Shown here piece by piece: positions 856-63,768 of a stretch of 64,000 nt of DNA (the stretch's first letter is position 1; each line of letters begins with the position of its first letter). Source of the DNA: Candidatus Marinacidobacterales bacterium (GTDB taxonomy: Bacteria > Acidobacteriota > Vicinamibacteria > Marinacidobacterales > SMYC01); contig OZ250169.1 of the NCBI GenBank assembly GCA_965237955.1, positions 3,136,001 to 3,200,000 on the forward strand, read 5' to 3'. Below the pieces are notes generated by a model. It was not told the origin of the DNA and did not search any database. It saw only the letters and a program-made list of their open reading frames with translations. A program made the translations under genes and the position numbers.

Positions 856-1507
856 TTAAAGTGACCCCCGGCAAAGCCGGGGGCCTATTCATAAGAGCCC
901 CTCGAAGGGGCTGTTCATGAGCCCCCTAAAGGGGGCGATCTTGCTCCCCAACTACGAGCCCGACCAGTCCATATTCAGCTGGTCCAGACGTTGGTCCTCC
1001 TGCTCTTGGAATGTACTTGCGGACCATCTCTTCGTCCAAGCCTACGGTCGACACGAAGTAACCGCGTGCCCAGAAGCTTTCGCCGGTGAAGTTGCGTCTG
1101 CGTCCGCGGAAGTTCCGTGCCACCGAGATCGCACTCTTGCCTTTGATGAACCCCACCACGTTCGACACCGCAAACTTCGGTGGGATGCTGATGCACATGT
1201 GGACGTGGTCCGACATCAAGTGGCCCTCCAGAATCCGGGCCTCTTTTTGTTTCGCCAGCTCGTGGAGAATCTTTCCCAGATGCGTTCTGATTGCACCATA
1301 CATCTTCTTCCTTCGGTACTTCGGGATGAACACAACGTGATATTTGCAGTCCCATCGTGTGTGGGATAGGCTCTTGTATTCTTTCACCTTGGTAGTCCTC
1401 CTTGTTTGGAAGTTCGCGCTTTCCAAGGAGGACTTTCTTTCCTACTTCCTTACACGGTCAAACCTCTGGGAGTCACCCCGGCAGAGCCGGGGGTTTACCT
1501 CAATGAA
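856..1507 (-). mobile_element. IS200/IS605-family element
   Basis: Subterminal hairpins CCCCCGGCAAAGCCGGGGG (~865-883) and CCCCGGCAGAGCCGGGG (~1476-1492). TTAA lies next to the left end. Contains tnpA. Confidence 0.9.
926..1426 (-). CDS. tnpA: IS200/IS605 Y1 (HUH) transposase, C-terminus apparently frameshifted
   Basis: SHTRWDCKYHVVFIPKYR, DHVH (HUH motif), FWARGYFVSTVG, VRKYI. Confidence 0.9.
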   Translation of the reverse strand: MESANFQTRRTTKVKEYKSLSHTRWDCKYHVVFIPKYRRKKMYGAIRTHLGKILHELAKQKEARILEGHLMSDHVHMCISIPPKFAVSNVVGFIKGKSAISVARNFRGRRRNFTGESFWARGYFVSTVGLDEEMVRKYIPRAGGPTSGPAEYGLVGLVVGEQDRPL

Positions 1508-1991
1508 TTAAGTGTTGGCGGCCAGCCCCTAACCGGTCTGCGTGCTAGAGTTTGAACCAGAATTCTGAAGACACAGTTCTCTCATCGTCAGGGCCGAGCC
1601 GAAGTGAAGAATCGCAGATGTCTCAATCCCGCATGTCCGTTGCGGGGCAAAGTCAGTTCCGGAAACATCGTTCGCCACGGATTCTACCGAACCAGGTCCG
1701 GGAAACGCCGTCGATACCGGTGCGGCGAGTGCGGAAAGACGTTCTCCTCGACGAAAGGCACGCTCTACTACCGTCTCCAACATCGAAGAGCTACTTTCGA
1801 TGGGGTCATCGCTCTCAGAGTCGAGGGCGTCAGCATTTCCTCGATTTCTCGGATCGAAGGGATTGCCTGGAACACCGTCGCCCGCTGGCTCGAGAAGGCA
1901 GCCCAAGTGTGTCGTCGATTCAACCACTTGATGGCGGAAGCACCGATTTATGGCCTATTTCAAAAGGGCCGAGTTTTTGCGCAGGACGGGG

Positions 1992-2231
1992 GTCGAGAAG
2001 CTGCGCACCGAGCCGGTGTTCGTGCTCTGGATCGAAAACAAGGAGTTCCAGTGGCTCGAGCCGACCATCACCACCGAGCAGATCGCCGAGCTTGGCGGCT
2101 GGGATCCGTCGAAGGGCGTTCAGCAGATCGACCTTGCCACGAACAAGGCACACACACTCAAGCCGGGTGAAATCGTCGATCTGAGGGATATCAAGACCTT
2201 CGTGAAAAAGATCGGCTGGCGACGTGGCTGA
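1992..2231 (+). pseudogene. ubiquitin-like (multi-ubiquitin/beta-grasp) protein, 5'-truncated by a mobile-element end
   Basis: WIENKEFQW..PTITTEQIAELGG...LKPGEIVDL pattern typical of bacterial multi-ubiquitin domains. Ends in RRG and overlaps the start of the E2-like gene. Confidence 0.7.
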
Positions 2232-2635
2232 GCGCGAGCTCCGCCTCGAGGAAGAACACCGGCTGATCGCCACGGTCTTTCCAAGCGTCGTTCAGTCGGG
2301 GGATTGGTTCCTCATCCCGGACGACGCTCGGGCGACGCGGTACGGCTGGACTCTGGATCCGTTTCCGGTTGCGTTTCACGCACAGCCAGGACACCCGGGG
2401 CAGGTGCCATACGGTATATACGTGCCGTCCTCCGCACAGGCCGGCGGCCAAGTGCCGAACAACTTCAACGGCAACGCGAGCAATCGGCCGCCGTTCGAGG
2501 GGCAGTGGGGTGTTCTCTCCTGGCAGGGCGACGACCAAGGAATCCCCTGGGTCCCGGCGCAGCGGATTCGCGAGGGGGCCAACCTGTTGAACTTCCTCAT
2601 TCACGTTCGACGAGCGGTTCAAAGAAGGTGTCTGA
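2224..2635 (+). CDS. prokaryotic E2/UBC-like protein (1-nt frameshift at ~2600 near the C-terminus)
   Basis: WFLI..GW..VAF..PGHPGQVPYGIYVP...PPFEGQWGVLSW...W.P...GANLLNFL fits a prokaryotic E2 pattern. Removing one T at ~2600 gives ...LITFDERFKEGV* ending at 2635, overlapping the JAB start. Confidence 0.7.
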
Positions 2636-3176
2636 ATCCACTAAGGAACGGAGGCTCCGCTTCGAGAGCAAGGCGCATTACCAAGCATTTCGCTCCGCGC
2701 TCGTGTGCGGAGCATACGCATACTATCGCGAGCAAGGGGCTTTTCTCTTCGCGTCCCCGGCGGCAAATGGAGAGCTGGACGTCGTTGATGTCGCCGTGCT
2801 CAAGACGGCCGATTTCGTTATGCAGTCGGCCGGCTACGTGGAGCTGCACGACGATGCGCTCCAGGAGATGATCGTCCGTGCGCATAGGACGGACACCGCG
2901 CTGATGGAGGCTCACTCGCACCCCCTCGCGGAAGGGCCTCGGGTGCGTTTTTCGTCCTTCGATTGCGAGGGCTTGGCCGACATCGGGCCGCAGATGTCGT
3001 GGCGACTTCCAGGCCGGCCCTACATCGCCTTGGTCTTAGGTCGGGATGCGTTCGATTCCCTTTACTGGGAAGGTCGAGAGCGAAGGCCTCGGGGCTCCGT
3101 GGACCTTGTCGTCGCCGGGCAACTGCTACGCGCGAGTCGTGAATCCGAGCGCTCTTGGGGGCGAGACCATGGATAG
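2628..3176 (+). CDS. JAB/JAMM metallopeptidase (deubiquitinase-like)
   Basis: E in REQGAFLF plus HSHP...FSSFD (HxH-x-S-x2-D JAMM motif). The GTG start overlaps the reconstructed E2 stop. Confidence 0.85.
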   Translation: MSESTKERRLRFESKAHYQAFRSALVCGAYAYYREQGAFLFASPAANGELDVVDVAVLKTADFVMQSAGYVELHDDALQEMIVRAHRTDTALMEAHSHPLAEGPRVRFSSFDCEGLADIGPQMSWRLPGRPYIALVLGRDAFDSLYWEGRERRPRGSVDLVVAGQLLRASRESERSWGRDHG

Positions 3177-3978
3177 GTTCGACAGGCAACGGAAGATCTT
3201 CGGAGACGAGGGACAGAAGCGCCTGCGCGCCGCGACGGTTGGTGTCGTCGGCGGGGGAGGCCTGGGCTCGTTCATAGTGCTCGAGCTTGCCTATCTGGGG
3301 ATTGGGAAGATCCTAATTGTCGACCAGAAGCTGCTCAAGTGCTCGAATCGGAACCGGTTGGTGGGTGCTTGGGCGTCGCACCCAGACGGGACGCCCAAGG
3401 TCCAGCTACTACGCGACCTCGCGGGACTGATCGACTCCAAGATCGAGATCGAGCTGGTACAGGACGGTGTCGAAAGCTCCGATGCACAAGCCGCACTCGC
3501 AAGCGTGGACATCGTTGTGGGATGCGTCGACCACGATGGCCCTCGGTTCGTGCTGAACGAATTCTGCTGCAAGCAAGGTCTGCCGCTTATCGACGCGGCA
3601 AGCGATACAGTGCATGAAAAGGACAGGGTTCTCTTCGGAGGGCGGGTTTGTGTCGCAACGCAGGAGACGGGCTGCCTCGCGTGCTTCAAGGTGTTGGACC
3701 AGAACGAGCTTCAGGACTACTTCGCTTCGCCACAGCAGCGGACTGACCGGGGTGCGATCTACGGCGTGCCCGAGAGCGCCCTGGCCGGTGGCGGTCCGTC
3801 GGTGGTCACGGTCAACGGAGTGGTAGCGTCGATCGCGGCGACAGAATTGATGGTGTTGGTGACCGAGATCCGTGCTCCCATCGCGCATCAGGACTGGCGT
3901 GGCCATGAGGGTTGCCTGCTTCGTGTTGTCGACCGCGAGGAAGGCTGCTACTACTGTGGCTTGCGTCCTGTTGATTAG
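3169..3978 (+). CDS. ThiF/MoeB-family E1-like adenylyltransferase
   Basis: RFDRQ, VGGGGLG, SNRNR, PKV, GCVD and the Zn-binding pair CLAC/CYYC. The ATG overlaps the JAB stop. Confidence 0.92.
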   Translation: MDRFDRQRKIFGDEGQKRLRAATVGVVGGGGLGSFIVLELAYLGIGKILIVDQKLLKCSNRNRLVGAWASHPDGTPKVQLLRDLAGLIDSKIEIELVQDGVESSDAQAALASVDIVVGCVDHDGPRFVLNEFCCKQGLPLIDAASDTVHEKDRVLFGGRVCVATQETGCLACFKVLDQNELQDYFASPQQRTDRGAIYGVPESALAGGGPSVVTVNGVVASIAATELMVLVTEIRAPIAHQDWRGHEGCLLRVVDREEGCYYCGLRPVD

Positions 3979-4062
3979 CCGGGTCCTATTGCTCACTACG
4001 GTACTTTCGAGTGAACGAACGATTTCGGTCACTCCCCGATGGCCTCCGCCCACGCGGGCGGT

Positions 4063-4647
4063 GCCGTCCTGTGCCAAAACTCGGCCCTTTTAACTGAAAG
4101 GGATGTCCGAGTCTATGTCAGAATCAGCGGCACAGCGGCAGCGACACCTGTGCTCCGCAAAAAGTCGATCCGGCGTTGATTACGTGGTTTAGACCTGCCA
4201 TGCTCGGCTGCCTTGTGCCGGTCGACCCGACGGCGCCACCGGCGTCTTAGGAACGTGGAGAGGCTCGCTCTTGCGACTGTTTTCGAATATCCGGTCTATT
4301 GTTCTGGACGCCATCGCGTTCGCTCGCAACCTATGCCGCTCGCGCCGCGCCCTCGCCGCAGAGAACTTTTTCCTTCGGAAGCAGCTCACGTTCTTTGTCG
4401 AGCGTAAGCAGGCTGTGCTCCGCAAAAAGTCGATCCAGCGTTGATTGCGCGGTTTAGACCTGCCATGTTCAGCTGCTTTCGCTCCGATCGACCCGACGAC
4501 GCCACCGGCGTCTTATGAACGTGGAGAGGCTCCCTCGGGCCAGACGATTGTAAAGCCTACGGCCCTTGGCCCGGTCGCGAACACAGACACTAAGCTGCTG
4601 ATTTATAGTCTATTTCAAAAGGGCCGAGTTTTGGCACAGGACGGGGG
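4063..4647. repeat. cluster of orphan mobile-element ends
   Basis: CCGTCCTGTGCCAAAAC end at 4064. Two TGTGCTCCGCAAAAAGTCGATCC ends at ~4149 and ~4414. A ~105-bp TIR copy at ~4540-4645 matches 56840-56943. Confidence 0.8.
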
Positions 4648-4656
4648 GGACACCAG

Positions 4657-6108
4657 CTAATGTCTACGTTCGCCGACTACCCAGAGGTTGGCGCTCGAGC
4701 GAATGAACAGCTGGCCCTGTGACACCGCCACCGAGCTGAGGCAGTACGGCGTGCAGCCGTCGTCGAACGAGTTTGACGCGAGGATCTCGAATTCCGGCCC
4801 GGTCCGGTACACGGTCCACAGGCCCTCCTCCTCGGTCGAGACGTAGATCTTGCCGTCGGCGAGGATGGGAGACGAGCTGTAGGTGCCGCTCGGCAAACGC
4901 TCGGGGCCGTAGACGACCTCGCCCGTGTCGAGCCTCAGACAGTAGGCCACGCCGCGGTCGGTCACGACGTAGACATACTCGCCGGCGCTCACCGGCGTCG
5001 GCACGTCGGGGCCTCGGTCGAACTCCCACGCGACGTGCGTGTCGCCGATGTCACCGCTGCCGCCCGGCCGGATCGCGACCATGGGCCGCACCCGACTCGG
5101 CGCGACGATCAGATCGCCCATGATCGTCGGCGAGGCGATGATCCGGTAGGCCCCGTTGTTCTGGGGATTGAGGACGTTCGCGCGCCAGAGTTCTCGGCCG
5201 GTGTCGGGATCGTGCCCGGTGACCGCATCCCCGCCGGTGATGACGAGTTCCGTCTTGCCGTCGTACTCGAGCCACGTCGGCGTCGTGTAAGAATCCGGAG
5301 ACTCGCGCCGTGCCGTCGTCGGCCGCTCGATGTACCACAGCGTCTCGCCGGTCATCTTGTCGACCTTGACCACGTACGACGGATCGTCGGTCCGCATACC
5401 GTGGAGCACCTGCAGGTAAAGCGCGTCCCCCTGCAGGAGCGGCGACGAGGCGTATCCCCAGTTGAGCCCGAACCGATAGTAATCGTCCGAGATGTTGCGC
5501 GACCAGATCTCGTTGCCCTCGAAGTTGAACGCCTTCAGGGCGCCGACGCCGGTCATCACCCAGACACGTTCGCCGTCGGTCACGGGCGACGGCGACGACA
5601 TGTTCTGCTTGCGCTGCATGTTGTTGCCGTCGGCGATGGGTCGCTTCCAGGCCACGTCCTGCGTCCGGCGGTCGACCGCCCAGAGTTCAAGGCTGCCCGA
5701 GGCCGTCTCCGTGGCTACATTGAGGAACACCAGGTCGTCCCAGATGATCGGTGTCGATCCGCTATAGGCTGGCAGCGGGAGCCGCCACGCGATGTTCTCG
5801 GTGTCGAACTCATCGCAGTTCGGCGGATGCGTCGGGACCGCAACCGATCGGCCGAAGCCGCGCCCCCGCTGCCGCTGGCCTCCCTGCAAGTTCGGACTGG
5901 CCTGGACGCTACGGGGGCCGCTCTCGGGCACCCCGGACACCCTGGGCTCGTCTTCGTCCAGGCACGTGGCGCTCCAGCTCACCGGCAGTCTGGTCTCGGT
6001 GCTGACGCTGTTGCGGGTCGGGCCGCGCCAGTGTGGCCAGTTGTCGGCCAGAAGCGACGATCGGGCCGCGACCGTCAGGATACAGGTCACCCAGAGTAAT
6101 CTCCGCAT
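4657..6108 (-). CDS. secreted PQQ-binding-like beta-propeller protein
   Basis: Signal peptide followed by NWPHWRGP, repeated SSP/STP blade motifs, W-ending blades and a C-terminal QLFIRS. Confidence 0.9.
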   Translation of the reverse strand: MRRLLWVTCILTVAARSSLLADNWPHWRGPTRNSVSTETRLPVSWSATCLDEDEPRVSGVPESGPRSVQASPNLQGGQRQRGRGFGRSVAVPTHPPNCDEFDTENIAWRLPLPAYSGSTPIIWDDLVFLNVATETASGSLELWAVDRRTQDVAWKRPIADGNNMQRKQNMSSPSPVTDGERVWVMTGVGALKAFNFEGNEIWSRNISDDYYRFGLNWGYASSPLLQGDALYLQVLHGMRTDDPSYVVKVDKMTGETLWYIERPTTARRESPDSYTTPTWLEYDGKTELVITGGDAVTGHDPDTGRELWRANVLNPQNNGAYRIIASPTIMGDLIVAPSRVRPMVAIRPGGSGDIGDTHVAWEFDRGPDVPTPVSAGEYVYVVTDRGVAYCLRLDTGEVVYGPERLPSGTYSSSPILADGKIYVSTEEEGLWTVYRTGPEFEILASNSFDDGCTPYCLSSVAVSQGQLFIRSSANLWVVGERRH

Positions 6109-6340
6109 GTCGGGAACTCCCTTCGATGGTTAGCGTAACCGGAGATACGAACAGGTTCAACACGATGTCAACTCTATCGGTATCAGGCGTAAACGTGCCG
6201 GGTAGTCCCTCGTTCGGGGGGGTGCACCCGAGCCGCGACGAGTGCAAGGCCGGGCTAAGCCTCGCTCCGGCTTGGCACGTTCTTTGGGATTCCTCGACAG
6301 AGCGCTCAGCCTGCGGCGACGGTGGAGTCAAGCCCATTCT

Positions 6341-7644
6341 CCTAAGAAACTACCGCCTGAACGACGTCGCCCGTTTGAGTGTCGATGAGAGCGAAACCGA
6401 GGTCAGCGGCGCGTTGGGTCAGGCGGCGCACGGCACGGGAGCGATCTTGAGCGTTGTAGGCGGCGGCCCCGGGGTCTTGATAGACGAGCCCATCCTTGAG
6501 AGTGCGGTAGACGAGAATGGCGAGCTTTCGAGCGGTGGCGGTGATGGCTTTGGATTTACCGACGCGATAGGCGAGACGTCGATAGTAGGCGCCGAGAGCG
6601 GTCTGTGTACGCCCGAGGCTGAGTGCGGCCATGCGGAGAATGCCAGCGGCGCGGTTTGCAGAGGGTTGTGTTTTCGAGCTGAGGAGTCGCCCGCCGGAGA
6701 TTTTGTTATTGGGCGCGAGGGTAAGCCAGGAAGTGAAGTGCTTTTCAGTAGGCCATCGGTTCATATCGGTCCGATCTCGGCGAGCAAGCGAAGCGCGGAA
6801 TAGGGTCCGATGGCGTCGATCTGGGAGAGGTCGACCCCGGCGATCTGGTGGAGGAGAGGCCGGAGCTCGAACCGAGGTTCGTTCACTCGGGGCTTGCGCG
6901 ATTTTCGAGGCGGTGGCAAGGAGGTGTTCGGGGTTGAGCGTTGAGCTAGAAGCTGCAGGTGCGATTCGATGGCCACGTCACAGGTTTGGATCTGGAGCTG
7001 AAAAGCATCAAAGAGTTCGAGGTTCTGCTTGAGAGCGAAGAGGTGCTCGGGGCGATAGTTGCCGGTGAGTGCAGCGGCGATCTCGGCCTCGGAGGACTGA
7101 CAACGGTGGTCACGGTGCTTGGCGAGCCGATGGGGGTCGGTTTGTCCGGCAACGATGTCTCGTAGAATCCGCATGCCAGTGACACCCGTGATATCAGTGA
7201 CCACAAGGTGGAGTTGAAGATTCATTTGCACGAGAGCCTTCTGCATGCGCTGGATATGGGTTACCGCACTCTGAACGAGAGTCTCTCGGTGGCGGAGGTA
7301 GCCACGCAGGGCGGTGATGGCTGCTTCGGGTCGAAAGCTTCCGCGGAGCAACCCCACGCTGTGCAACTCCCGGAGCCATTCGCAATCGCTGACATCGCTC
7401 TTGCGCCCCGGGACGTTTTTGACGTGGCGCGCGTTGACCAAGAGGACCTGGAAGCCACGGGCTTCGAGGATTTCATACAGGGCGATCCAGTAGACGCCGG
7501 TCGACTCCATCGCGACGCTCGTCACGCCGCAAGTCGCGAGCCGATGAAGATCGGCCGTGAAACTCCTGAAGGAACGGACCGGTTTAGGATCGCGCTCCGG
7601 TGGAACTGCGACGAAATGCTCGGCCGAGCCGCAATCGATCCCAG
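6341..7644 (-). pseudogene. IS110-family transposase copy, 5'-truncated and frameshifted
   Basis: Nearly identical to 37535-38847, with a 12-nt deletion and a 1-nt deletion at ~6770. Fused at ~7644 to an integrase fragment. Confidence 0.9.
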
Positions 7645-35727: not shown

Positions 35728-36483
35728 TCTCTCGGTACCGGTTGCCAACGACGCTGCTCGGGGAGCGCGATGACGTCGTACTCATGGCATTCGGTGACGA
35801 GTGCCTCTTCGAAACTGCGAAAGCTGTCGACGGCTTGCTTGCCCAGATGGGACAGCAGGGTATTGTCAAAGTTAAGCAAAATCGGGCTGACCGATCCCCA
35901 ACATGCCGGGTTCACGACACTTCCCCTGATCGTCACGGATGGGCTCGATTTCTACGAAAAGGTCGTCCGTCGCGTCTTCGGGCCGGCTTGTCTCTATGGC
36001 CAAGTCCTCAAGACGCGTAGGAACGATCGTGTCGTCAAGGTCGAACGACGGGCCATTCATGGAGCTGCGTGGCGATTCGAAGAAGCGCTCAATAACTCCG
36101 AGGACTCTTTCGACATTGAATACCTCCTTCATCGAGCGACTGAATCTGACCATCCGGCAAAGCTCGGCATACCTTTCGAGACGAACGCTTTCCCACGCTC
36201 GCTCGACGGAGAGGCTCGATGAGCACCTGGAGTTGCTCCGTTGCTATTACAATTTCGTCCGACCGCACGGAACTCTGAAGTTCGGACGTGAGATCCGAAC
36301 TCCGGCTATGCAGGCCGGTCTGACCACGCGACGGCTCACCTTTCGAGACATCTTCTTGGCGACAACGATTCCTTTGTGGTCGCGGATCGAGGTTTTCTTG
36401 CTCACTGGGAGGCGCAACCTGGTCTCTTCCGCACCTGTACCACTGCCCGCAGCCGCGTAGCAACATTTGATGGAGGAAGCACC
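35728..36483 (+). pseudogene. IS1-like transposase 3' part (frameshifted) plus right TIR
   Basis: IVTDGLDFY, YGQVLK, NTSFIERLNLTIRQ, YYNFVRPH, TPAMQAGL. TIR CAACATTTGATGGAGGAAGCACC at 36461-36483. Confidence 0.88.
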
Positions 36484-37533: not shown

Positions 37534-39183
37534 CCTAAGAAACTACCGCCTGAACGACGTCGCCCGTTTGAGTGTCGATGAGAGCGAAACCGAGGTCAGC
37601 GGCGCGTTGGGTCAGGCGGCGCACGGCACGGGAGCGATCTTGAGCGTTGTAGGCGGCGGCCCCGGGGTCTTGATAGACGAGCCCATCCTTGAGAGTGCGG
37701 TAGACGAGAATGGCGAGCTTTCGAGCGGTGGCGGTGATGGCTTTGGATTTACCGACGCGATAGGCGAGACGTCGATAGTAGGCGCCGAGAGCGGTCTGTG
37801 TACGCCCGAGGCTGAGTGCGGCCATGCGGAGAATGCCAGCGGCGCGGTTTGCAGAGGGTTGTGTTTTCGAGCTGAGGAGTCGCCCGCCGGAGATTTTGTT
37901 ATTGGGCGCGAGGGTAAGCCAGGAAGTGAAGTGCTTTTCAGTAGGCCATCGGTTCATATCGGTACCGATCTCGGCGAGCAAGCGAAGCGCGGAATAGGGT
38001 CCGATGGCGTCGATCTGGGAGAGGTCGACCCCGGCGATCTGGTGGAGGAGAGGCCGGAGCTCGAACCGAGGTTCGTTCACTCGGGGCTTGCGCGATTTTC
38101 GAGGCGGTGGCAAGGAGGTGTTCGGGGTTGAGCGTTGAGCTAGAAGCTGCAGGTGCGATTCGATGGCCACGTCACAGGTTTGGATCTGGAGCTGAAAAGC
38201 ATCAAAGAGTTCGAGGTTCTGCTTGAGAGCGAAGAGGTGCTCGGGGCGATAGTTGCCGGTGAGTGCAGCGGCGATCTCGGCCTCGGAGGACTGACAACGG
38301 TGGTCACGGTGCTTAGCGAGCCGATGGGGGTCGGTTTGTCCGGCAACGATGTCTCGTAGAATCCGCATGCCAGTGACACCCGTGATATCAGTGACCACAA
38401 GGTGGAGTTGAAGATTCATTTGCACGAGAGCCTTCTGCATGCGCTGGATATGGGTTACCGCACTCTGAACGAGAGTCTCTCGGTGGCGGAGGTAGCCACG
38501 CAGGGCGGTGATGGCTGCTTCGGGTCGAAAGCTTCCGCGGAGCAACCCCACGCTGTGCAACTCCCGGAGCCATTCGCAATCGCTGACATCGCTCTTGCGC
38601 CCCGGGACGTTTTTGACGAGGCGCGCGTTGACCAAGAGGACCTGGAAGCCACGGGCTTCGAGGATTTCATACAGGGCGATCCAGTAGACGCCGGTCGACT
38701 CCATCGCGACGCTCGTCACGCCGCAAGTCGCGAGCCAGTCGGCGAGCCGATGAAGATCGGCCGTGAAACTCCTGAAGGAACGGACCGGTTTAGGATCGCG
38801 CTCCGGTGGAACTGCGACGAAATGCTCGGCCGAGCCGCAATCGATCCCAGCGACATTCACGTTGATTTGCTTCAGGAGGGATGGAGAAGTCCGCTTCTTG
38901 GGTTGACGACGATTGTGCTTCATCAGATGCTCCTTCATACTTCGTGAAGCATCCGGGAACAGGGATGGGCATTCGTTACATTCTCCTAAACGGGATCACG
39001 CTCACGCGTGTCACCACTGACAGTGCCGAAACATCCCCGGGCCATGCTTAGTTACGGGCTGGATCGCACCAGTGTTGAGTCGGCCTCGGTTCCCGGATGC
39101 TCCCGCTATTGTATGAAACGGACGCTCCGTGCAGCACTGGAGTTTCTACCCAGATAGATCGCGAGCCCTGCGCGTACGATGCT
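37534..39183 (-). mobile_element. IS110-family element, full length (transposase 37535-38938)
   Basis: GIDCG, MESTGVYW, RKSDVSD (DEDD), SGG. CT core at both junctions, no TIR or TSD. Confidence 0.95.
38948..39101 (-). ncRNA. putative IS110 bridge RNA
   Basis: A 13-bp inverted repeat (38948-38960 / 39089-39101) encloses segments matching the target halves (AGTGTTG 39071-39077, CTTAGTT 39047-39053) and one donor half (CTCCTAA 38983-38989). Confidence 0.65.
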
Positions 39184-39981
39184 TAGTTGGAACGCCTACA
39201 AGATGCTGCACGAGCGGTTGGAGTTCATGGCCAACCTCGATTACATCCAGGCCAACGATCCAGAGTTCGGCAGCGCGATATCCTGGGGCATGGGCGGGTA
39301 CGCCCGCGGGCATGTCTCGGACCAGGTGCGCATCGCCTACCGCTTCGAATTCATGGACGACACCGATGCGCGGTCGACCGGATTCAAGCAGAACCTCCGG
39401 GAGAACACGTTCACGCTCGAGGTCCAGCCTGTGAAGGACGACCCACGCTTTCTGACGCGTATCGAATACCGCCGTGACTGGTCCGACCTCCCGTTCTTCA
39501 CCTGCGGCAGCTGCGCGAGTGGCATGGCGACGAAACAGGACACGTTCACGGTTGGTATGATGTGGGTCTTCGGACCCAGGCAATAGGGGTCGCCCGACGG
39601 CACGGGGCTGGGAGGGTGCCTTTTGAGAGCGTTGAGGTTGCGAACGTCCCGGAATAAGTTGCCTCGTGCGGGACGAAGATGAGGGCGCGAAAGGTGTGTG
39701 ATTTGTGCACATCGTTCAACGAGGTCCGTGGTCGGTGACCACGAAGCCCCCGGGCGGCTTGCGATGGAAGTCCGAGAGGTTGGTGAAGGATCGTTCTTTT
39801 TTCGCAGAAGCTTTCGCGGATGAAACGGGTAGCCCTTTTCTCGTTGGCTCGGCCTGAGAGGAGGCTTGGGACTGGAAGGTGGAAAAACATACCTGCTCCG
39901 CCAGCCACTCGCCGAGCGCCGACTTTGAGGTTGTCGTAGAACCAGCTACCTTTGGACATCCGGTGCTTCTGCCATCAAGTG

Positions 39982-41404
39982 ATGGAATGGACTCCTCCGC
40001 TGACATAGACGGCATCGATGTGCCAAAGTCAGTCGAATACGCATCGAAAAGGAGGAGTCCGAATGAAAGATACGACGATCGCTGTGGATCTTGCAAAGAA
40101 CGTCTTCGAGATTGCCATCTCGGGAGAAGCGGGGAAGGTGTCCAAGCGACTCCGTGTGAGTCGACCCAAATTGGTGTCGTTCTTTGCCAAACAGAGCGCT
40201 GCCACCGTGCTTCTCGAAGCCTGCGGCTCGGCTCACTTCTGGGCAAGGACGTTCCGAAGGTTGGGACAACGACGTCGTCCTGCTCCCACCTCACCTCGTG
40301 AGGCCGTATCGACGCGGGAGCAAGAACGACCGCGCCGACACGAAGGCGTTGCTCGAGGCCTACAGGAACGAGGAGCTTCTTCCCGTACCCATCAAGTCCG
40401 TGCACCAGCACACCCTCGCCGCGCTCCATCGCCTGCGCTCAGGATGGCTCTCCACACGGACCGCACGCATCAATGCCGTACGCGGGATCCTGCGCGAACT
40501 CGGATTCATCATCCCAAAGGGCGCTCACTTCGTCGTGCCCGCCCTCTTCGAACTCGTCGAAGACGCTGATTCTGATTTGCCCGACGTGCTCCGTTCGCAT
40601 CTCCGTGATGCCTGCTCCGAGATTCGAGAACTCAAGGACAAGTGCGCTGGCATCGAGCACGAGCTCAAGGCGCTCACCAAGCAGCTTCCTGAAGTCCAAC
40701 GACTTCTCGCCATTCCCGGCATCGGACTTCTGACCGCGACCGCCATCGTGGGCTTCGTCGGCGATCTTCGCCGCTTCCCATCGGGGCGCCGCTTCTCGAG
40801 CTACCTCGGCCTGGTTCCCAAGGAAAACTCCAGTGGCGACATTCGCCGCCTCGGACGCATCACCAAGCGTGGCGACTCCTACCTGCGTATGCTCCTCACC
40901 CAGGGCGGGCGCGCCGTGCTCCGCGCGGCGAACGTCAGTAAGAGCCCGCCCGACAAGCTCCGCGCCTGGGCTCGGAAGGTCCACCGCTCGCGGGGACACA
41001 ACAAGGCCGTGATTGCTGTCGCCAACAAACTCGCCCGGATCGTCTGGGCCGTCTCCACCCGCGAGGGTGAATTCCAGTCGGTGCCCGTGGCCGTTTAGAG
41101 GTTCCACTTTCGTGTTTTCTTTTTTCCCTTCCAAAAGAGGCTGCGACGATACCCATCCAACTGATGGCGTACCGGTCGGACCGGCGCGGGGTCAAGCCGA
41201 TAGCAACACTGGCCCTAAGAGGTCGTTCAAAGTGATTGGCTCCTCGCGCGCGGATTTTCCATCATGGCCCGGAGCACCCAAGACGCTCCTCACTGAGGCC
41301 GAAGATACGTTTGCAGTCTGACCCACTCGTCACGACGCGATGGATGCGCAGCTTCGATGGAAGATTTATTAAGAAAGGGGCTTGACTAGAGGAGTCCAGA
41401 TATG
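39982..41404 (+). mobile_element. IS1111-group (IS110 family) element; transposase 40063-41098 with 1-nt frameshift at ~40268
   Basis: IAVDLAK, LEACG, KNDRAD, IPGIG, GLVP..SSG. Subterminal IRs TGGACTCCTC (39988-39997) / GAGGAGTCCA (41389-41398). TG core and long 3' non-coding end. Confidence 0.93.
41160..41330 (+). ncRNA. putative IS1111 seek/bridge RNA
   Basis: Four guide-like segments match the reconstructed target and donor junctions (see findings). A second copy lies at ~56941-57075. Confidence 0.7.
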
Positions 41405-42808
41405 TTGCTACGCCGCATTTGAATGCTAGTGCCGGTTGGCCTGCGTGTGTCGGCGAACGCCATCGCGTCTAATAAGTGGTGTCGGCGTGCACACGAAGAT
41501 GTCCCTGAACGTCAGGCACCGCGTGGTCAGCCCAGCCGGCATCGCCGACAGAACTACGTCTCTCGAAATCAGGCTCAAACTCTAGCACGCGAGCGGGTTA
41601 CGCGGCAGTCACCAACACTTGATTGCGGAAGCACCGACTTTGCCCCGCAACGGACAGGCGCGATTGAGACATCTGCGATTTTTCACTTTGGATCGGCCCT
41701 GACCACGAGAGAACAGTGTCCTCGAAATTCTGGCTCAAACTCTAGCACGCAGGGGGGTTAGGGACTGGCCGCCAACACTCCTAAGAAACTACCGCCTGAA
41801 CGACGTCGCCCGTTTGAGTGTCGATGAGAGCGAAACCGAGGTCAGCGGCGCGTTGGGTCAGGCGGCGCACGGCACGGGAGCGATCTTGAGCGTTGTAGGC
41901 GGCGGCCCCGGGGTCTTGATAGACGAGCCCATCCTTGAGAGTGCGGTAGACGAGAATGGCGAGCTTTCGAGCGGTGGCGGTGATGGCTTTGGATTTACCG
42001 ACGCGATAGGCGAGACGTCGATAGTAGGCGCCGAGAGCGGTCTGTGTACGCCCGAGGCTGAGTGCGGCCATGCGGAGAATGCCAGCGGCCCGGTTTGCAG
42101 AGGGTTGTGTTTTCGAGCTGAGGAGCCACCCGCCGGAGATTTTGTTATTGGGCGCGAGGGTAAGCCAGGAAGTGAAGTGCTTTTCAGTAGGCCATCGGTT
42201 CATATCGGTGGGTTACCGCACTCTGAACGAGAGTCTCTCGGTGGCGGAGGTAGCCACGCAGGGCGGTGATGGCTGCTTCGGGTCGAAAGCTTCCGCGGAG
42301 CAACCCCACGCTGTGCAACTCCCGGAGCCATTCGCAATCGCTGACATCGCTCTTGCGCCCCGGGACGTTTTTGACGAGGCGCGCGTTGACCAAGAGGACC
42401 TGGAAGCCACGGGCTTCGAGGATTTCATACAGGGCGATCCAGTAGACGCCGGTCGACTCCATCGCGACGCTCGTCACGCCGCAAGTCGCGAGCCAGTCGG
42501 CGAGCCGATGAAGATCGGCCGTGAAACTCCTGAAGGAACGGACCGGTTTAGGATCGCGCTCCGGTGGAACTGCGACGAAATGCTCGGCCGAGCCGCAATC
42601 GATCCCAGCGACATTCACGTTGATTTGCTTCAGGAGGGATGGAGAAGTCCGCTTCTTGGGTTGACGACGATTGTGCTTCATCAGATGCTCCTTCATACTT
42701 CGTGAAGCATCCGGGAACAGGGATGGGCATTCGTTACATTCTCCTAAACGGGATCACGCTCACGCGTGTCACCACTGACAGTGCCGAAACATCCCCGGGC
42801 CATGCTTA

Positions 42809-45800
42809 GGGCCGGCGACAAAATAAGTTCCCGTTTTCAAGACGGTCGGATGGTGTAGTTCCATTTGGGTAGAGTCTGGTCCTTTGTAACGGAAAGCGCC
42901 TGCATCCGCTCGTCAGTGATTTTGACGCCCTTCGGATAACGACGCCGGATAAGGTGTGCGCGTACTCGCAAACCGGAAGAGGTGGTGGTCGTGCGGATGT
43001 ATTTGAGGATGGTTTCGTAGCTGTCGAGAGGCCTGCCCGCCCAGTTCTTGCTGATCTCGCTGAACAGACGGTGCTCCACTGGATTCCACTTGGATGTACC
43101 GGACGGATAGTGGGCTATGGTGATAGCGATGTCGTGGCGATTGCAAATCCGCGTTTGAAGCCCGTGCTTCCAACCCCGACACCGATAGCCATTGCTGCCC
43201 CCGGCGTCTGCCAATATCGCGAGGTCACGGTGTTTCGGTTCAGCTGGAACATGACAGTCCTGAAGTTAAAATACGCACATGGAAAAAGGAGCTGTCATGA
43301 GCAAAGGTCGTCGTCGTCACACTGCGGAGCAAAAGGCAGAGCTGTTGCGCCAGCACGTTGCCGAGAAAAAGCCGGTCTCGGAGGTATGCAACGAGGCAGA
43401 AATCCAGCCGAGCCTGTTCTACACATGGCAAAGGGAGCTATTGGCTGGAGCCCATACGGTGTTTTCGTTCCGTCGTGCGCCGAGCCGTGAGAAGGAGCTA
43501 GAGGAGAAGCTCTCCCGTCTCGAGGCGAAGGTGGCCCGTAAGGATCAGATCATCGCTGAGGTGACCGAAGAGTACGTGACACTCAAAAAAAACTTGGGGA
43601 AGCCTGAGTGGTGCCTGGATTCCCCATGACCGTCGTGACGAGGTTGTCGACTTCGTGAACACAATCGCCACCAAGACCCAGCTTCCGGTCCAGCAGATCG
43701 TTCAGTGGTGCGGGATCGCTCGGGGCAAGTTCTACGACTGGCGCAAGCGGTACGGGAAGGTGAATGAGCACAACGGCCTGGTGCTGCGGGATCACTGGAC
43801 CGAAGAATGGGAGCGCCAGTCCGTGATCGACTACTTCGACTGCCACCCACTGGACGGGTATCGCCGACTCACGTTCATGATGCTGGACGAAGACGTGGTG
43901 GCAGTTAGCCCCTCGACGACGTACCGGGTGTTGTCGAAGGCGGGTCGTCTGGACCGTTGGAACCCGAAGCCGTCGAAGAAGGGAACGGGCTTCGTTCAGC
44001 CGCTGCGAGCGCACCAGCACTGGCACACGGATATCTCGTACTTGAACCTGGGTGGGACGTTCTACTACCTCTGCTCGTTTCTGGATGGTGCGAGCCGCGC
44101 GGTGGTTCACTGGGAGATTCGTGAGTCGATGACGGAAGCGGATGTGGAGTGCATCTTGGAGCGAGCAAAGGAGCGGTACCCCGATGCGCGGCCTCGAATC
44201 ATCTCGGACAACGGTCCGCAGTACATCGCGAAGGACTTCAAGGCATTCATCCGCATCTCAGGGATGACGCACGTGAGGACCGCGCCGTACTACCCGCAAT
44301 CGAACGGGAAGATCGAGCGTTGGCACAAGACGATAAAATCGGACGCCCTGCGTCCTGCCAGCCCCACGAGCCTCGAAGAGGCTCGCCGCTTGATGGAACG
44401 ATTCGTCGAATATTACAACGGGGTTCGCCTGCACAGCGCGATCGGCTACATTGCGCCGCTGGACTTCATGGATGGCAAGGCCACCCAGATCTGGTCGGAG
44501 CGAGACCGCAAACTCGAGCAGGCTCGGAAGCTGCGGCGTGAGCGCCGTGCGAACAAGGTGCCCGCATGAACACTCTGATCCCAGGAGCCCCACTCCGTTC
44601 CCTCTCGCCCACAAGCATTGAGTACCAGAGAGCGCAGGGGGCGTCAAGGGCGGCGAAGCCGGCGCGCGCAGCGCGCTTTACCCTTGACGCCCCCGAGCAC
44701 TCTGGTACGATCCCTGGGGCGATAGGGGACATCCTGCCGCCGGGCGTTGCGTTAACGTCCAACCTCGCTGTCATCTTCACGCTGAACCAATACAACGGGC
44801 TGCAGGATAGCGTCGCCGTCCTTCCGTTCGCCACCACTTCTCGATGGCATTCACGGCGAAGTCCGGGGTGTTGTACGAGGTACCAATGAACACTGTCCCG
44901 CGGTTCGCGAGCAGATCGTAGACGCCGTAGGGGATTGCGATGCCGTTCGATTCGGAACGGAAGTCATGGTCTTTGACGAGAGTCGGCTCGCGGTTCCAGG
45001 CCTGCCCGCCGTTTTTGAATAATCCCACCAGCTCCCGTTTCTTCGTGTCTACGCTGATGATGGGATGACCAGCTGCGGCAAAACGCTCGCGCAGTTCGGC
45101 GATACACGCGAATTGGGTATCGCGATCTTCGGACGTGGCACCGCACAGCTTCTTGTGGTTCACCCGCAACGAGAAGCCGAGCTGTTTGAGCAGTCGACCG
45201 ACGGTTTTGCTGCTGACGTTCACACCGAGGCTTCTTAGCTCGCAAGCAATCTTGTCGGTGGTCCGCCGCGTCCATTTCACTCCCGTCATCGGATCGCCCG
45301 CGGTGTCGTGCTTCATGAGTTCTTCGATCTTGGCGATGACTTCTGGCGTTTTTTTTGCACGGCGCGCCGTCCGCCACCCTTTCGCCGAACTCCGTCGAGC
45401 TCAACATCTCTCATTAGCAATTCCCTACGACCTCTGGCTACCGTGCTCGGATCCATCCCGAGCAGTTCGGCAATCTGTTGGTCGCCACCGTGACCGAGCT
45501 TCATGGCCTCGACTCCCGCGTAGAGACGGCGCTGCTTTTCATCGAGCAGGCTGTAGAAAAGAACGATCGCAGCCTTCAACTCCACGGGGAGCACGCGGAC
45601 TCCCCCGACCCAGCCCAACGTGGAAGGTGACGCCTCATGTACCTGGCGGGCCGAGAGCTGTTGCTTGCGCGTGCTCACATCGGTGGCCAGATACAGATAT
45701 CGGCCGAACACCTGCTCGCGCGCCAATCTTTTCTCTCGGACCAGTTTCAACAGAGGAGCCTTGACGTCAACCTGCACCACGTCCTCGAGCTCGTCGACGT

Positions 45801-46302
45801 AGTAGCCTGCCTCACAGGCCGCGACCAACGCTTTTACCGTCGCAAGCAACGTCCCGTACTTCGAGAACCACACTGAGCGCAACGACCAAAGACCTTTTCG
45901 ATCGAACTGGGCGATCTCGTCCAACGTGTAGTAGCTACCACGGTGGGAGTAGCTTGTCCGATACGCCAACTCATTGAGCTTTCGGAAGACGGTCGAGTCC
46001 ACATCGGTACCCAACACTGCCTTCAAATCATCGAGGGTAGCTATTTTGTGCTTCCTCAACAGGCGGTCGAGATCTTCAGACTGATAGCTCGTAGGTCTCA
46101 TAATAGGAGAAGTGCTCCTTGATAGGCGTAATCCTACCTAAAATGAGGACCGTTTGCCAAACACGCGCTGGTTGCTGAAGATCTACAAATGTTCCGTTTC
46201 TAGGGAGCTTGCCAGGCTCTCGTGATGCCAGACGACATCGCGATCACGACCTGAAACAGGAAGAGTGTGCTCAAAACTAGACAGTTATTTTGTCGGCGGC
46301 CC
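42809..46302 (-). mobile_element. ISAzo13-family element (ORFs 45313-46101, ~44799-45316, 42837-~43226), interrupted by IS3
   Basis: TIR GGGCCG(G/C)CGACAAAATAA, TTA TSD. Motifs ISVDTKKRELVG, DHDF, ADAGGSNG, SKWNPVEHRLFS. A-run frameshift site at ~45350. Confidence 0.92.
43231..44794 (+). mobile_element. IS3-family element (orfA ~43297-43609, orfB to 44569)
   Basis: TG...CA TIRs (TGTTTCGGTTCAGC / GCTGAACCAATACA), 4-bp TSD ACGG. Motifs WHTDI, SDNGPQY, SNGKIERW. A8 run at 43585-43592. Confidence 0.95.
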
Positions 46303-46595
46303 TTAGTTACGGGCTGGATCGCACCAGTGTTGAGTCGGCCTCGGTTCCCGGATGCTCCCGCTATTGTATGAAACGGACGCTCCGTGCAGCACTGGAGTTT
46401 CTACCCAGATAGATCGCGAGCCCTGCGCGTACGATGCTTAGTTGCGGAAGCACCATAAATTCTGCTAAAGTACTCTACTTGTACTGACTTAGTTGACCGG
46501 CAAGCCATCGTCAGGTGTCAGGGGGACCGTCTGCCCGACTGGCTGAGCTGAATGCCCAAAAAGCTTTGACCTGGACTGAAAAGGAGCGCAAGAGC

Positions 46596-55510: not shown

Positions 55511-56943
55511 CCCGTCCTGTGCCAAAACTCGGCCCTTTTGAAATAGGCCATAAATCAGCAGTTTAGTGTCTGTGTTTGCGACCGGGCCAAGGGCCGTGGG
55601 CTTTACAATCGTCTTGGGCGGGCGGGTCGTCACCATGCAGATGACCACCTAGTCGAGAGCGAATATCGAAGCGTGTTCCTGAAGCGGTTTCCACGCTACG
55701 CCGGTCGAGCCCGCCGAGGGGCTACCGTCGCCGGCGACCATCTACGCGGCACGGCAGTAGTAGTTGAGAATGCCCACAAGTCGCTCTCGCGACACGATGG
55801 GGCCAGCGTCATTCGCGCTTGCCGGCAGAGGTGTGATGAGCTCGTTGCCGAGACCTTGGTGGTTCCGTTCTGTGTGATAGTGCACTACGTATTCGGTTAC
55901 CGCTGTGCGCAGGTGTCGCTCACTGAGAGGTACGAAGCGGTCGAGACACTCTCGACGTATGGAGAGAACGAATCTTTCCGCATATGCGTTCAGATTCGGA
56001 CTATTAGCGGGAAGGCGAAGGGGCTTCACGCCTGAATCTCTCAACAGCCCACGTACCGCCTCGGTGAATAGCGGGTCCCGGTCGTGGATGAGGTATCGCT
56101 TGCCAAGGAGGAAACCATCCCACATGTCAGTGAGGTTTCTTGCAACCTGCTTCATCCACTCCCCGTTGGGGTCCGACGTTATCCCACCGATGCACACGCA
56201 GCGAGTGGCGATATCGATGACAAACAGGACATGGTAGCGGACGAGCCCGAACGGGTTCACAACCTCGACGGTGAACAGGTCTGTCGCAGCGATGGCGCCC
56301 CAATGAGCCTTGATGAAGGTGCTCCACGACATGCTCCTGCCCCGCTCCGGCGCAGGAGCGATACCGTGCTCGGCGAGGAGCCTCTTGATAGTGTTGCGTC
56401 CGAGTTCATGTCCTAGGTTCTTGAGTGCGCCTCGCAGGCGCGTATATCCCCACGTCGGGTTCTCCCGCGCCACGCGCACAATGAGCTCACGGATGTCCTT
56501 CGCCGTCGGAGGTCGGCCTGGACTCCGGTTCTTGCTGCCATCGTACTTGGCTGCGATGAGGTGGCGGTACCAGCGCAGAAGCGTAGCGGGTGTGGCAACG
56601 GACGCAATCTGGGCCAGCGCCTCGCGGCCCAAAGCCTGGGCCTTGACGGCGAGCCTGCGCCGCTCGTCGTCCGAGAGACTGAGACGCTTGCCCCGAAGCC
56701 CGGCTCGGAGCACACGGTTCTCCTCTTGCTGGTAGTCGATCACATCCTGCTGCTGGCGGTTGACCCAGCCAGCTAGAACGAGCAGTAGGAATTGCACGTG
56801 GTACGTCATCATGGAGCTGAAGATAACACCCTCGGGCTAGACGATTGTAAAGCCTACGGCCCTTGGCCCCGGCGCAAACACAGACACTAAGCTGCTGATT
56901 TATGGCCTATTTCAAAAGGGCCGAGTTTTGGCACAGGACGGGG
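55511..56943 (-). mobile_element. rve-integrase element with ~105-bp TIRs; transposase 55742-56812
   Basis: Intact 356-aa DDE ORF (ATDLF, IHDRD, NAYAERF). 55511-55614 and 56840-56943 are long inverted repeats. Confidence 0.92.
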
Positions 56944-57509
56944 TCAAGCCGATAGCAACACTGGCCCTCAGAGGTCGTTCAAAGTGATTGGCTCCTCGCG
57001 CGCGGATTTTCCATCATGGCCCGGAGCACCCAAGACGCTCCTCACTGAGGCCGAAGATACGTTTGCAGTCTGACCCATTCGTCACGACGCGATGGATACG
57101 CAGCTTCGATGGAAGATTTATTAAGAAAGGGGCTTGACTAGAGGAGTCCAGATATGTTGCTACGCCGCGTTTGAATGCTAGTCCCCTGTATCAGAACAAA
57201 CTAGATAAAGCAGAGCTTGCCGAAACCATTCTAAGTGCATGAATCTTATGAATCTTATGGGCTGGCGAAAAGCCTAACTTTGTATAGTAATCAAAGATCC
57301 AGGGGACTAGTGTCAGTTGGCCTGCCTGTGTCGGCGAACGCCATAAATAAGGATGTCGGCGCGCATACGAAGATGTCTCTGAACGTCAAGCACCGCGTGG
57401 TAAGCTCAGCCGGCATCGCCGAAAGAACTGCGTCTCTGGAAATCAGGCTCAAACTCTAGCACGCGAGCGGGTTACGCGGTAGCCACCAACACTTGATTGC
57501 GGAAGCACC
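56941..57509. repeat. second copy of the IS1111 3' end plus IS1-like derivative
   Basis: Homologous to 41188-41635. Confidence 0.85.
57182..57306. mobile_element. 125-bp MITE
   Basis: TIR TCCCCTG(T/G)ATC and CTAG TSD (57178-57181, 57307-57310). Absent from the homologous site at ~41426. Confidence 0.85.
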
Positions 57510-62513: not shown

Positions 62514-63768
62514 TCCCGTCCTGTGCCAAAACTCGGCCCTTTTGAAAAACCATGTCTGTAATTTAATGCACCGTAAAGTCTTAGTGTCATTTTACCAACA
62601 CTTAATGGCGGAAGCACCCATGAGGTCTGTGTGAGCGGCAGGGCTGCCCGATCGAACAACGGCTGCCTGACCAACAGTAGGAATTGCACATGGTACGTCA
62701 TGATGGTTCCGAAGATAACACCCTCGGGCCAGACGATTGTAAAGCCCACGGCCCTTGGCACCATCGTAAAACACAGACGCTAAGCAACTTAGTGTCTGTG
62801 TTTGCGATCGGGCCAAGGGCCGTGGGCTTTACAATCGTCTTGGGCGGGCGGGTCGTCACCATGCAGATGACCACCTAGTCGAGAGCGAATATCGAAGCGT
62901 GTTCCTGAAGCGGTTTCCACGCTACGCCGGTCGAGCCCGCCGAGGGGCTACCGTCGCCGGCGACCATCTACGCGGCACGGCAGTAGTAGTTGAGAATGCC
63001 CCCAAGTCGCTCTCGCGACACGATGGGGCCAGCGTCATTCGCGCTTGCCGGCAGAGGTGTGAGGAGCTCGTTGCCGAGACCTTGGTGGTTCCGTTCTGTG
63101 TGATAGTGCACTACGTATTCGGTTACCGCTGTGCGCAGGTGTCGCTCACTGAGAGGTACGAAGCGGTCGAGACACTCTCGACGTATGGAGAGAACGAATC
63201 TTTCCGCATATGCGTTCAGATTCGGACTATTAGCGGGAAGGCGAAGGGGCTTCACGCCTGAATCTCTCAACAGCCCACGTACCGCCTCGGTGAATAGCGG
63301 GTCCCGGTCGTGGATGAGGTATCGCTTGCCAAGGAGGAAACCATCCCACATGTCAGTGAGGTTTCTTGCCACCTGCTTCATCCACTCCCCGTTGGGGTCC
63401 GACGTTATCCCACCGATGCACACGCAGCGAGTGGCGATATCGATGACAAACAGGACATGGTAGCGGACGAGCCCGAACGGGTTCACAACCTCGACGGTGA
63501 ACAGGTCTGCCGCAGCGATGGCGCCCCAATGAGCCTTGATGAAGGTGCTCCACGACATGCTCCTGCCCCGCTCCGGGGCAGGCGCGATACCGTGCTCGGC
63601 GAGGATCCTCTTGATAGTGTTGCGTCCGAGTTCATGTCCTAGGTTCTTGAGTGCGCCTCGCAGGCGCGTATATCCCCACGTCTCTCCCGCGCCACGCGCA
63701 CAATGAGCTCACGGATGTCCTTCGCCGTCGGAGGTCGGCCTGGACTCCGGTTCTTGCTGCCATCGTAC
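62514..63768 (-). pseudogene. degenerate copy of the 55511-56943 element plus mixed ends, interrupted by IS3
   Basis: 62790-63768 is near-identical to 55563-56547, with a small deletion. Orphan TIR at 62514 and IS1-like TIR at 62596-62618. Confidence 0.88.

Follow-up and report, generated by a model that had tools for sequence, protein, structure and literature searches.

Near-exclusive occurrence of an IS1111-group insertion sequence, with a predicted guide RNA, at one end of an IS1-like element family

Two insertion sequences (ISs) of the IS1111 type, IS4321 and IS5075, reportedly have as their target the inverted repeats at the termini of Tn21-family transposons. Members of the IS200/IS605 family carry a Y1 transposase and subterminal hairpins, and insert 3' of a fixed short motif. 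This study concerns a 64,000-nucleotide stretch (hereafter the window; contig OZ250169.1, positions 3,136,001 to 3,200,000) of the 8.13-Mb genome (G000) of a Candidatus Marinacidobacterales bacterium, in which copies of a terminal repeat of an IS1-like element, the host, are occupied by three ISs: element A of the IS1111 group, element B of the IS110 group and the IS200-like element C. Element A resembles IS4321 and IS5075 in having subterminal inverted repeats and a fixed insertion point inside the terminal repeat of another mobile element; it differs in that its target is the 23-bp end of an IS1-like element and of its miniature inverted-repeat transposable elements (MITEs), at one end only. 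It is clearly a new example of a known habit rather than a new mechanism, and it adds IS1-like ends to the known mobile-element targets.

Our analysis indicates that A very probably inserts almost only at one base of the downstream repeat of the host, likely by means of a predicted bridge/seek RNA, and that B and C follow motifs of their own, likely hitting variant copies of the other end incidentally. The placement of A, its single orientation, the co-variation of guides and flanks and the occurrence of near-clonal A copies in diverged hosts were read from the sequence. An original prediction made on the same DNA had described the repeat as a shared landing pad for three IS types, two of them apparently RNA-programmed against it. 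The shared landing pad is not real: A is the only one of the three elements aimed at this repeat, and the surprising three-way convergence is absent. Five related genomes (G033, G015, G008, G018 and G012) were included for comparison.

Placement of element A and its predicted guides

The multicopy terminal repeat that had been proposed was recovered: the motif matches seven times in the window at up to 3 mismatches, against 0.04 expected, and 182 times across G000 at up to 2 mismatches. When its ends are paired, it proves to be a 23-bp terminal inverted repeat that bounds MITEs of 166 bp and of ~244 bp as well as autonomous elements of ~1.2 kb. The two host ends diverge past base 23. The end upstream of the transposase gene reads ..TGTTGGCGGCC and continues with G, and the downstream end reads ..TGTTGCTACG and continues with CTACG, in which CTA is the stop codon of the host gene on the other strand. 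Zinc ribbon, helix-turn-helix and DDE-type motifs are present in the host transposase (355 amino acids). It matches the IS1 family best (NF033558, E 5e-22), with a score of 78.8 bits that is below the cut-off of 100, and its matches to plasmid proteins, at 25-31%, include annotated IS1 transposases. IS1-family elements have terminal inverted repeats of ~23 bp starting with GG, a form that the host repeats fit, and generate target duplications of 8-9 bp, except in some subgroups. No duplication of at least 6 bases was detected among 277 host ends in end pairs 40-9000 bases apart, and none was evident in 63 adjacent end pairs. As the family score is under the cut-off and no target duplication was found, we refer to the host as IS1-like and do not assign it to the IS1 family.

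The recombinase of A (343 amino acids) scores 308.9 bits against NF033542 (cut-off 140) and matches PF01548 and PF02371; its length agrees with the ~330-350 amino acids of IS1111-group DEDD recombinases. The subterminal inverted repeats have perfect 10-nucleotide arms, with extensions of 7 and 3 bases if each arm is taken to be 11 bp long, which admits one mismatch, and if TG is assigned to the left end. A non-coding region of ~305 bases (41099-41402) lies downstream of the gene. In G000, 24 of 25 left junctions fall after repeat base 20, in a single orientation, and the 25 right junctions comprise 18 that read TG-TTGCTA, the sequence of the downstream end, six right-end joins inside A and one that belongs to a sister element. 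In the five related genomes, where coordinates from two listings were matched by eye, the repeat contains 60 of 66 left ends (G033 32/32, G015 15/15, G008 4/4, G018 4/4, G012 5/11). All 33 A copies fetched from G033 are in the repeat, and 29 of their 30 resolved right junctions are of the downstream TTGCTA type. Counted genome-wide, most insertions of A lie in the repeat, as the original prediction supposed for all three elements, and those of B (1/11 left junctions in the repeat) and C (1/7 copies) mostly lie elsewhere.

The 3' non-coding region of A reads as a predicted bridge/seek RNA with the target guides TAGCAACA and AAGTG. The first loop, ATAGCAACACT, would pair with AG-TG-TTGCTA, and AAG-TG-AT corresponds to the other strand and, in its continuation, to A's first bases; the ends of A itself are matched by TTCCATCAT and AGATA-CG-TT. 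The top-strand complement lies 5' of the bottom-strand match, with one site and one orientation, as in the IS1111 arrangement. All traits of the IS1111 group that can be assessed from sequence are present in A. This guide order is the one given for IS1111 elements in the available part of PMC11187229, and the two extra guide bases sit where handshake guides act in IS621, according to the available part of PMC13626964. Among A homologues with parsable RNA and flanks, 25 distinct first loops agree with the right flank at 129 of 150 bases (81.3 +/- 5.3 in shuffles) and 22 second guides agree with the left flank at 61 of 66 bases (20.6 +/- 4.3 in shuffles); neither value was reached in any of 10000 shuffles. 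With regard to A, the proposed RNA-programmed targeting of the repeat fits both the placement and this co-variation.

It is extremely improbable that all nesting in the repeats merely reflects survival in dispensable, IS-rich islands. Repeat ends do cluster in few regions (0-21 per 200 kb), numerous other elements truncate or interrupt host-family repeats, and survival of this kind likely explains part of the insertions of B and C. Nevertheless, it fails to account for one base, one orientation and one end in six genomes, or for the co-variation of guides and flanks, and strict repeat ends make up only 0.06% of the genome.

The guides also discriminate between the two host ends. Among the 184 unoccupied strict ends in G000, 134 are of the TGTTGG type, which stay empty because of the TAGC part of A's guide, and a single one carries the full 11-base AAGTGTTGCTA. 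Element A is a clean case in which six guide bases select one host end over the other. The exceptions to filling in G000 are this one empty end, one partial end and one non-repeat site. That A has filled every perfect site was considered as a general rule and rejected: it is true of G000 only, as 38 perfect downstream ends in G033 and 11 in G008 are empty, so that saturation or escape is not general. Five repeat copies in the window had been listed as empty, and none of them turned out to be a free target for A. Two (41613-41635 and 57487-57509) are upstream ends of MITEs with A already in the other end, that at 36461-36483 is a downstream end mismatched within the guide-matched stretch, that at 1922-1944 is broken after base 20 and joined to the interior of the transposase gene, and that at 62596-62618 is a TTGGTA-type end.

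By analogy with the work on IS621 and ISEc11, A would excise as a circle, and its RNA would pair with A's own ends and with each strand of the target (TAGCAA-CA on one strand, AAG-TG on the second). The DEDD recombinase would then integrate the circle at the TG core, which lies some bases beyond the host stop codon, so that the host gene would stay whole. A sigma-70 scan of linear A revealed no promoter; TTGACT lies near its right end, and the joined ends yield only a weak -10.

Several points weigh against this reading, here and, for the origin of A and for element C, further below. Four of the 24 A left junctions in G000 have one outer flank in common and represent one event, so that at most 21 of the 24 are independent. 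In G012, 6 of 11 A copies lie outside the repeat despite having the same target guides; the three outside sites examined keep most of the AAG-TG half. The homologues are related, and the shuffle tests therefore overstate the co-variation; the matches do hold across many different targets despite this kinship. The register of the first loop was the best of three (in the shuffles likewise), and one mis-parsed row was kept in the test. Folding of the single sequences gave weak structures (z -1.73 in the case of A and -0.34 in that of B), and the RNA, the ribonucleoprotein and the circle junction of A are all predictions from sequence. No end-to-end joint of A was found in the contigs of four sequencing runs, which were assessed as contigs with runs of small share left out; contigs drop rare forms.

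Separately, an A variant with a changed donor loop (TTCCGTCAT, AGATATG) and unchanged target guides was observed in G012 (loci L064, L072, L079, L085 and L091), where 6 of its 11 copies are outside the repeat. It is also present among the four genomes that lack G012's excess of outside copies.

Independent insertion, host fate and origin of element A

Full-length host MITEs in G000 differ at 5-32 of ~244 bases, whereas their A copies mostly differ at 0-1 of 1423; the more diverged A copies are that in the window (27 bases) and one other (8). Six G033 hosts differ at 13-88 of ~650-690 bases and their A copies at 0-9 of ~1430. The presence of near-clonal A copies in diverged hosts indicates independent insertions, in which A swept through existing hosts. 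A history of one or a few entries of A into the repeat, followed by spread of the composite through the host transposase, is highly improbable. In its favour, TGATGG, A's left end, comes close to rebuilding the repeat (TGTTGG/C), giving a filled end that agrees with the consensus at 22 of 23 bases, the composite in the window (39961-41636) has 25-nucleotide arms that are 88% complementary, the host gene is intact in a filled autonomous copy, and one G012 junction reads TGTTGG. However, divergence is much greater among the hosts, which fall into several subtypes, than among their A copies, and no composite pair with identical hosts and different flanks was found in G000 or G033, where the closest G033 pairs differ at 2-3 of the first 220-240 bases and at 13-21 of 690. 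Spread of the composite is already contradicted as the main route. As attC-targeting relatives have the same left end, TGATGG is not an adaptation to the repeat.

The original prediction held that such insertions could immobilise the host. This is unproven, because A, through its left end, re-creates the repeat at 22 of 23 bases and leaves the host gene unharmed; no sign of A-filled hosts moving afterwards was found, which fits immobilisation without proving it. Twelve ends are broken after base 20 without A (approximately six events), compared with four ends each at bases 18 and 19, a weak hint that these breaks are footprints of A's recombinase. The broken ends include those at window 1922-1944, G000:C1:3087653 and 7995414, and a tandem array near 2862000-2862350. 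In one such case, an autonomous host that is otherwise intact has lost 3 bases from its end, and with them A's target. Tandem duplications of the 3' part of A, with the right-end core joined exactly to an internal TG, CG or GG, were observed at G000:C1 near 1134010, 3027774, 3052307-3052995 and 7864498, at one G033 locus (L237) and in sequencing run X15. The tandem right ends are likely misfires of A's recombinase, with assembly artefacts as the alternative.

Only one G000 copy does not lie in the repeat, and it is a sister element, A', with 93% identity to A in protein. Its guides, ATAACAATCGT and CAG-CG, match its own flanks, and reconstruction of its site yields a hairpin of 116 bases with GTATAAC and GTTATCC as borders, with a similar site ~5.9 kb away; we call these sites attC-like on the basis of what we take to be the features of attC. 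G000 encodes an integron integrase above the family cut-off. An integrase of this type in two frames, with an attC-like site adjoining, is located at G000:C1:3346207-3348244, and a separate pair of attC-like sites lies away from it at G000:C1:5241285-5247300. Many other relatives of A carry guides of the TAAC type, with flanks such as GTTAGGC. A quick tree groups A and A' in one clade (96), the sister of which (L009; 100) also has a TAAC guide. Given this tree and a sister with other guides in an attC-like site, the simplest reading is that A likely arose by retargeting of an attC-specific ancestor. The tree, a further point of the kind gathered above, was midpoint-rooted and includes one aberrant row, and the target of L009 was not seen. 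In a mainly open-access literature, we found no account of IS1-like ends that hold an IS1111 element or of a switch from attC to an IS end.

A broader and rather doubtful scenario may be envisaged, in which A would be a parasite of integron attC sites just after its switch to a transposon end, riding its host without disabling it. Filled elements would remain mobile, and the recombinase would leave deleted or shifted repeats closed to A. If true, this would represent a readable host switch and an arms race between two mobile elements within one genome.

Elements B and C in the same repeat

The predicted interruption of the repeat by three IS types was borne out, as each site rebuilds a repeat copy. 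Element C lies after base 16, the AG/CT core of B occupies bases 17-18 and the TG core of A bases 19-20. All three thus fall within bases 16-20, as expected of one landing site, but two different host ends are used: B and C occupy the end upstream of the host gene and A the downstream end. The proposal that two divergent RNA-guided recombinases converged on one repeat, with the IS200 element as a third user, could draw on this proximity; we nonetheless regard it as improbable, on the evidence from B and C that follows.

The recombinase of B scores 253.2 bits against NF033542. Its non-coding region of ~240 bases is upstream of the gene, which reaches the right end, and the closest named carriers of B-like proteins are mostly Acidobacteriota assemblies. 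All 11 left junctions read CAACTAAG, six of them in IS256-type ends, four at other sites and one in this repeat. Of 17 right junctions, 11 are IS256-type and 2, both with the same host flank, are in this repeat; these counts argue against convergence. Among CAACTAAG sites, those of the IS256 type are filled in 6 of 12 cases and others in 5 of 37 (P 0.016, with copies that are not independent). The only repeat copy seen with CAACTAAG is the one occupied by B, which may be held in favour of convergence. The guide TAACTAAG matches the left flank at 40 of 50 bases over 10 elements (shuffles 17.6 +/- 4.5), and B would be guided mainly by it to CAACTAAG sites, most often IS256-type ends.

The heptamer CAACACT had been noted in the non-coding ends of both A and B, and it is indeed present within the loops starting at 41200 and 46326. 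Its proposed match to the repeat as a guide stands for A, where the loop that contains it co-varies with the flank, and not for B. The first loop of B, ACTCAACACT, contains CAACACT and matches the repeat over 7 bases, as convergence would have it; it nevertheless shows no co-variation with the right flank in three fixed registers (the observed value was attained in 1380-7311 of 10000 shuffles). Six of 14 homologous first loops end in CACT and three contain CAACACT, two of these in elements inserted elsewhere. Because of this presence and the lack of co-variation, CAACACT appears to serve as a guide in A and, for the most part, as scaffold in B. The first loop has a floating TYGR match in 8 of 10 occupied and 8 of 30 empty flanks; as a post hoc result for one of five patterns, it is only a lead. 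In the B lineage (window 46300-46335 and 42730-42800; homologues L093-L145), the first target and donor loops end in a common CAnT-GGTG scaffold; only the second guides match, and the first loops do not read as simple duplex guides. The segment originally reported as an IS110 element at 41780-46438 is one, although it also carries nested elements, an ISAzo13 element inserted in the guide and, within it, an IS3 element. Two further IS110 copies in the window lie outside this repeat, at a non-repeat site (37535-39181) and in an IS256-type end (6342-7644).

Element C encodes a Y1 transposase (PF01797, E 5e-37) and would insert 3' of AGTTA, the position of all seven copies. Its interruption of the repeat was correctly recognised, but the element spans 859-1510 with AGTTA at 854-858 as its target, and not 856-1507 beside TTAA. 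One copy is in this repeat and one in the body of a 166-bp MITE. In favour of convergence, at least one of seven copies in the repeat has a P of 0.005, and two of seven lie within 85 bases of a family end, above uniform chance (P ~0.001); this excess is the second point announced above, and the incidental use of the repeat by C is not fully shown. We do not take the excess as targeting, given that the two family hits differ in position, that this feature was the reason for choosing the window and that the family clusters in IS-rich regions. We read the presence of C in family ends as the supply of its motif combined with survival in dispensable DNA, with a mild preference as the alternative.

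Features of the window and relation to known systems

The features are listed in Table 1. The window copy of A carries a frameshift due to a 1-base insertion near 40268, and other copies encode the intact recombinase. No Rfam family reached its gathering score in the window.

Table 1. Positions of the three elements, their predicted guides and the host repeats in the window
Feature	Position	Strand	Remark
Outer 20 bases of host downstream terminal repeat	39962..39981	+	Last two (TG) are the core common to, or part of, the left end of A
Element A, IS1111 group	39980..41404	+	
A left subterminal inverted repeat TGGACTCCTC	39988..39997	+	
A right subterminal inverted repeat GAGGAGTCCA	41389..41398	+	
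A predicted first target guide loop ATAGCAACACT	41200..41210	+	Complementary to AG-TG-TTGCTA of host downstream end, host stop codon included
A predicted second target guide AAG-TG, then AT	41226..41239	+	AT matches first bases of A (handshake position)
A predicted first donor guide TTCCATCAT	41255..41267	+	Complementary to left end of A
A predicted second donor guide AGATA-CG, then TT	41303..41313	+	Matches right end of A and first target bases
Remainder of host MITE, 251 bp without A	41405..41635	-	Upstream-type terminal repeat at 41613-41635
Element B, IS110 group	41781..46436	-	In upstream-type repeat variant reading CAACTAAG; internally deleted and interrupted
B predicted RNA target loop	46300..46335	-	First loop ACTCAACACT and guide TAACTAAG; split by ISAzo13 in the window copy
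ISAzo13-family element in guide of B	42809..46303	-	IS3-family element (~43230-44795) nested inside
Outer 18 bases of host repeat, left side of B	46437..46454	-	
Element C, IS200-like, Y1 transposase	859..1510	-	3' of AGTTA in upstream-type repeat (843-858 and 1511-1517)
IS1-like host, internally deleted	1511..1944	+	5' part of transposase gene fused to downstream repeat broken after base 20
Second A copy, truncated (guide region and right end)	56939..57156	+	Downstream end of MITE ending at 57509
Intact B copy	37535..39181	-	CAACTAAG site outside any such repeat; empty allele elsewhere in genome
Partial B copy	6342..7644	-	Right end in IS256-type terminal repeat
Empty downstream-type repeat	36461..36483	-	AAATG instead of AAGTG, a mismatch to the guide of A

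Other elements are found in host-family copies. At G000:C1:4590310-4591950, an IS3 copy interrupts a repeat near base 11, with a related IS200 in the same MITE. At window ~57208-57345, a MITE contains an element of ~130 bases that has CTAG-TCCCCTG and CAGGGGA-CTAG as its borders, and the MITE at G000:C1:3549300 carries the same insert. A conserved end, CGTCCTGTGCCAAAAC, occurs at window 1959-1987 and 4066-4090 and 452 times in G000; it cuts off many IS copies, including the A copy at 56939. At window 2000-3978, short genes with JAB-like and ThiF/E1-like motifs were spotted by eye, presumably a bacterial ubiquitin-like cluster.

Among described systems, C presents all the features of the IS200/IS605 family, with AGTTA as its motif and nothing unusual. 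Element B resembles ISEc21 of the IS110 group, which, in the available part of PMC11187229, has an upstream non-coding region and a target in other IS elements. The difference is that ISEc21 targets the coding region of IS3-family transposases, whereas B mostly occupies IS256-type ends and has two target loops, of which just one is readable as a guide. With the bridge recombinases IS621 and ISCro4 (PMC11208160 and PMC13626964, as far as available; PDB 8wt6 and 9t56), A shares a two-loop RNA and a 2-base core, and target, donor and handshake positions are readable in it. These recombinases are nevertheless distant from that of A (E ~1e-8, C-terminal part only), and the RNA of IS621 is upstream. 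The IS1111-attC group (ISKpn4, ISPst6 and ISPa25) is closer: in the same portion of PMC11187229 it has the downstream non-coding region and the guide order of A, and A's closest relatives have TAAC-type guides and sit in attC-like sites. In contrast, the guide of A reads TAGC and its target is a transposon end instead of attC; the named elements were compared without alignment. Finally, ISEc11 and ISXne4, presented there as a case of natural reprogramming, are likewise close relatives in which guide bases and targets have changed. A and A' differ from them in that they are 93% identical, occur in one genome and would have switched between two classes of mobile-element sites. As a natural pair of recombinases with different guides and target classes, they make the retargeting of RNA-guided insertion sequences directly testable.

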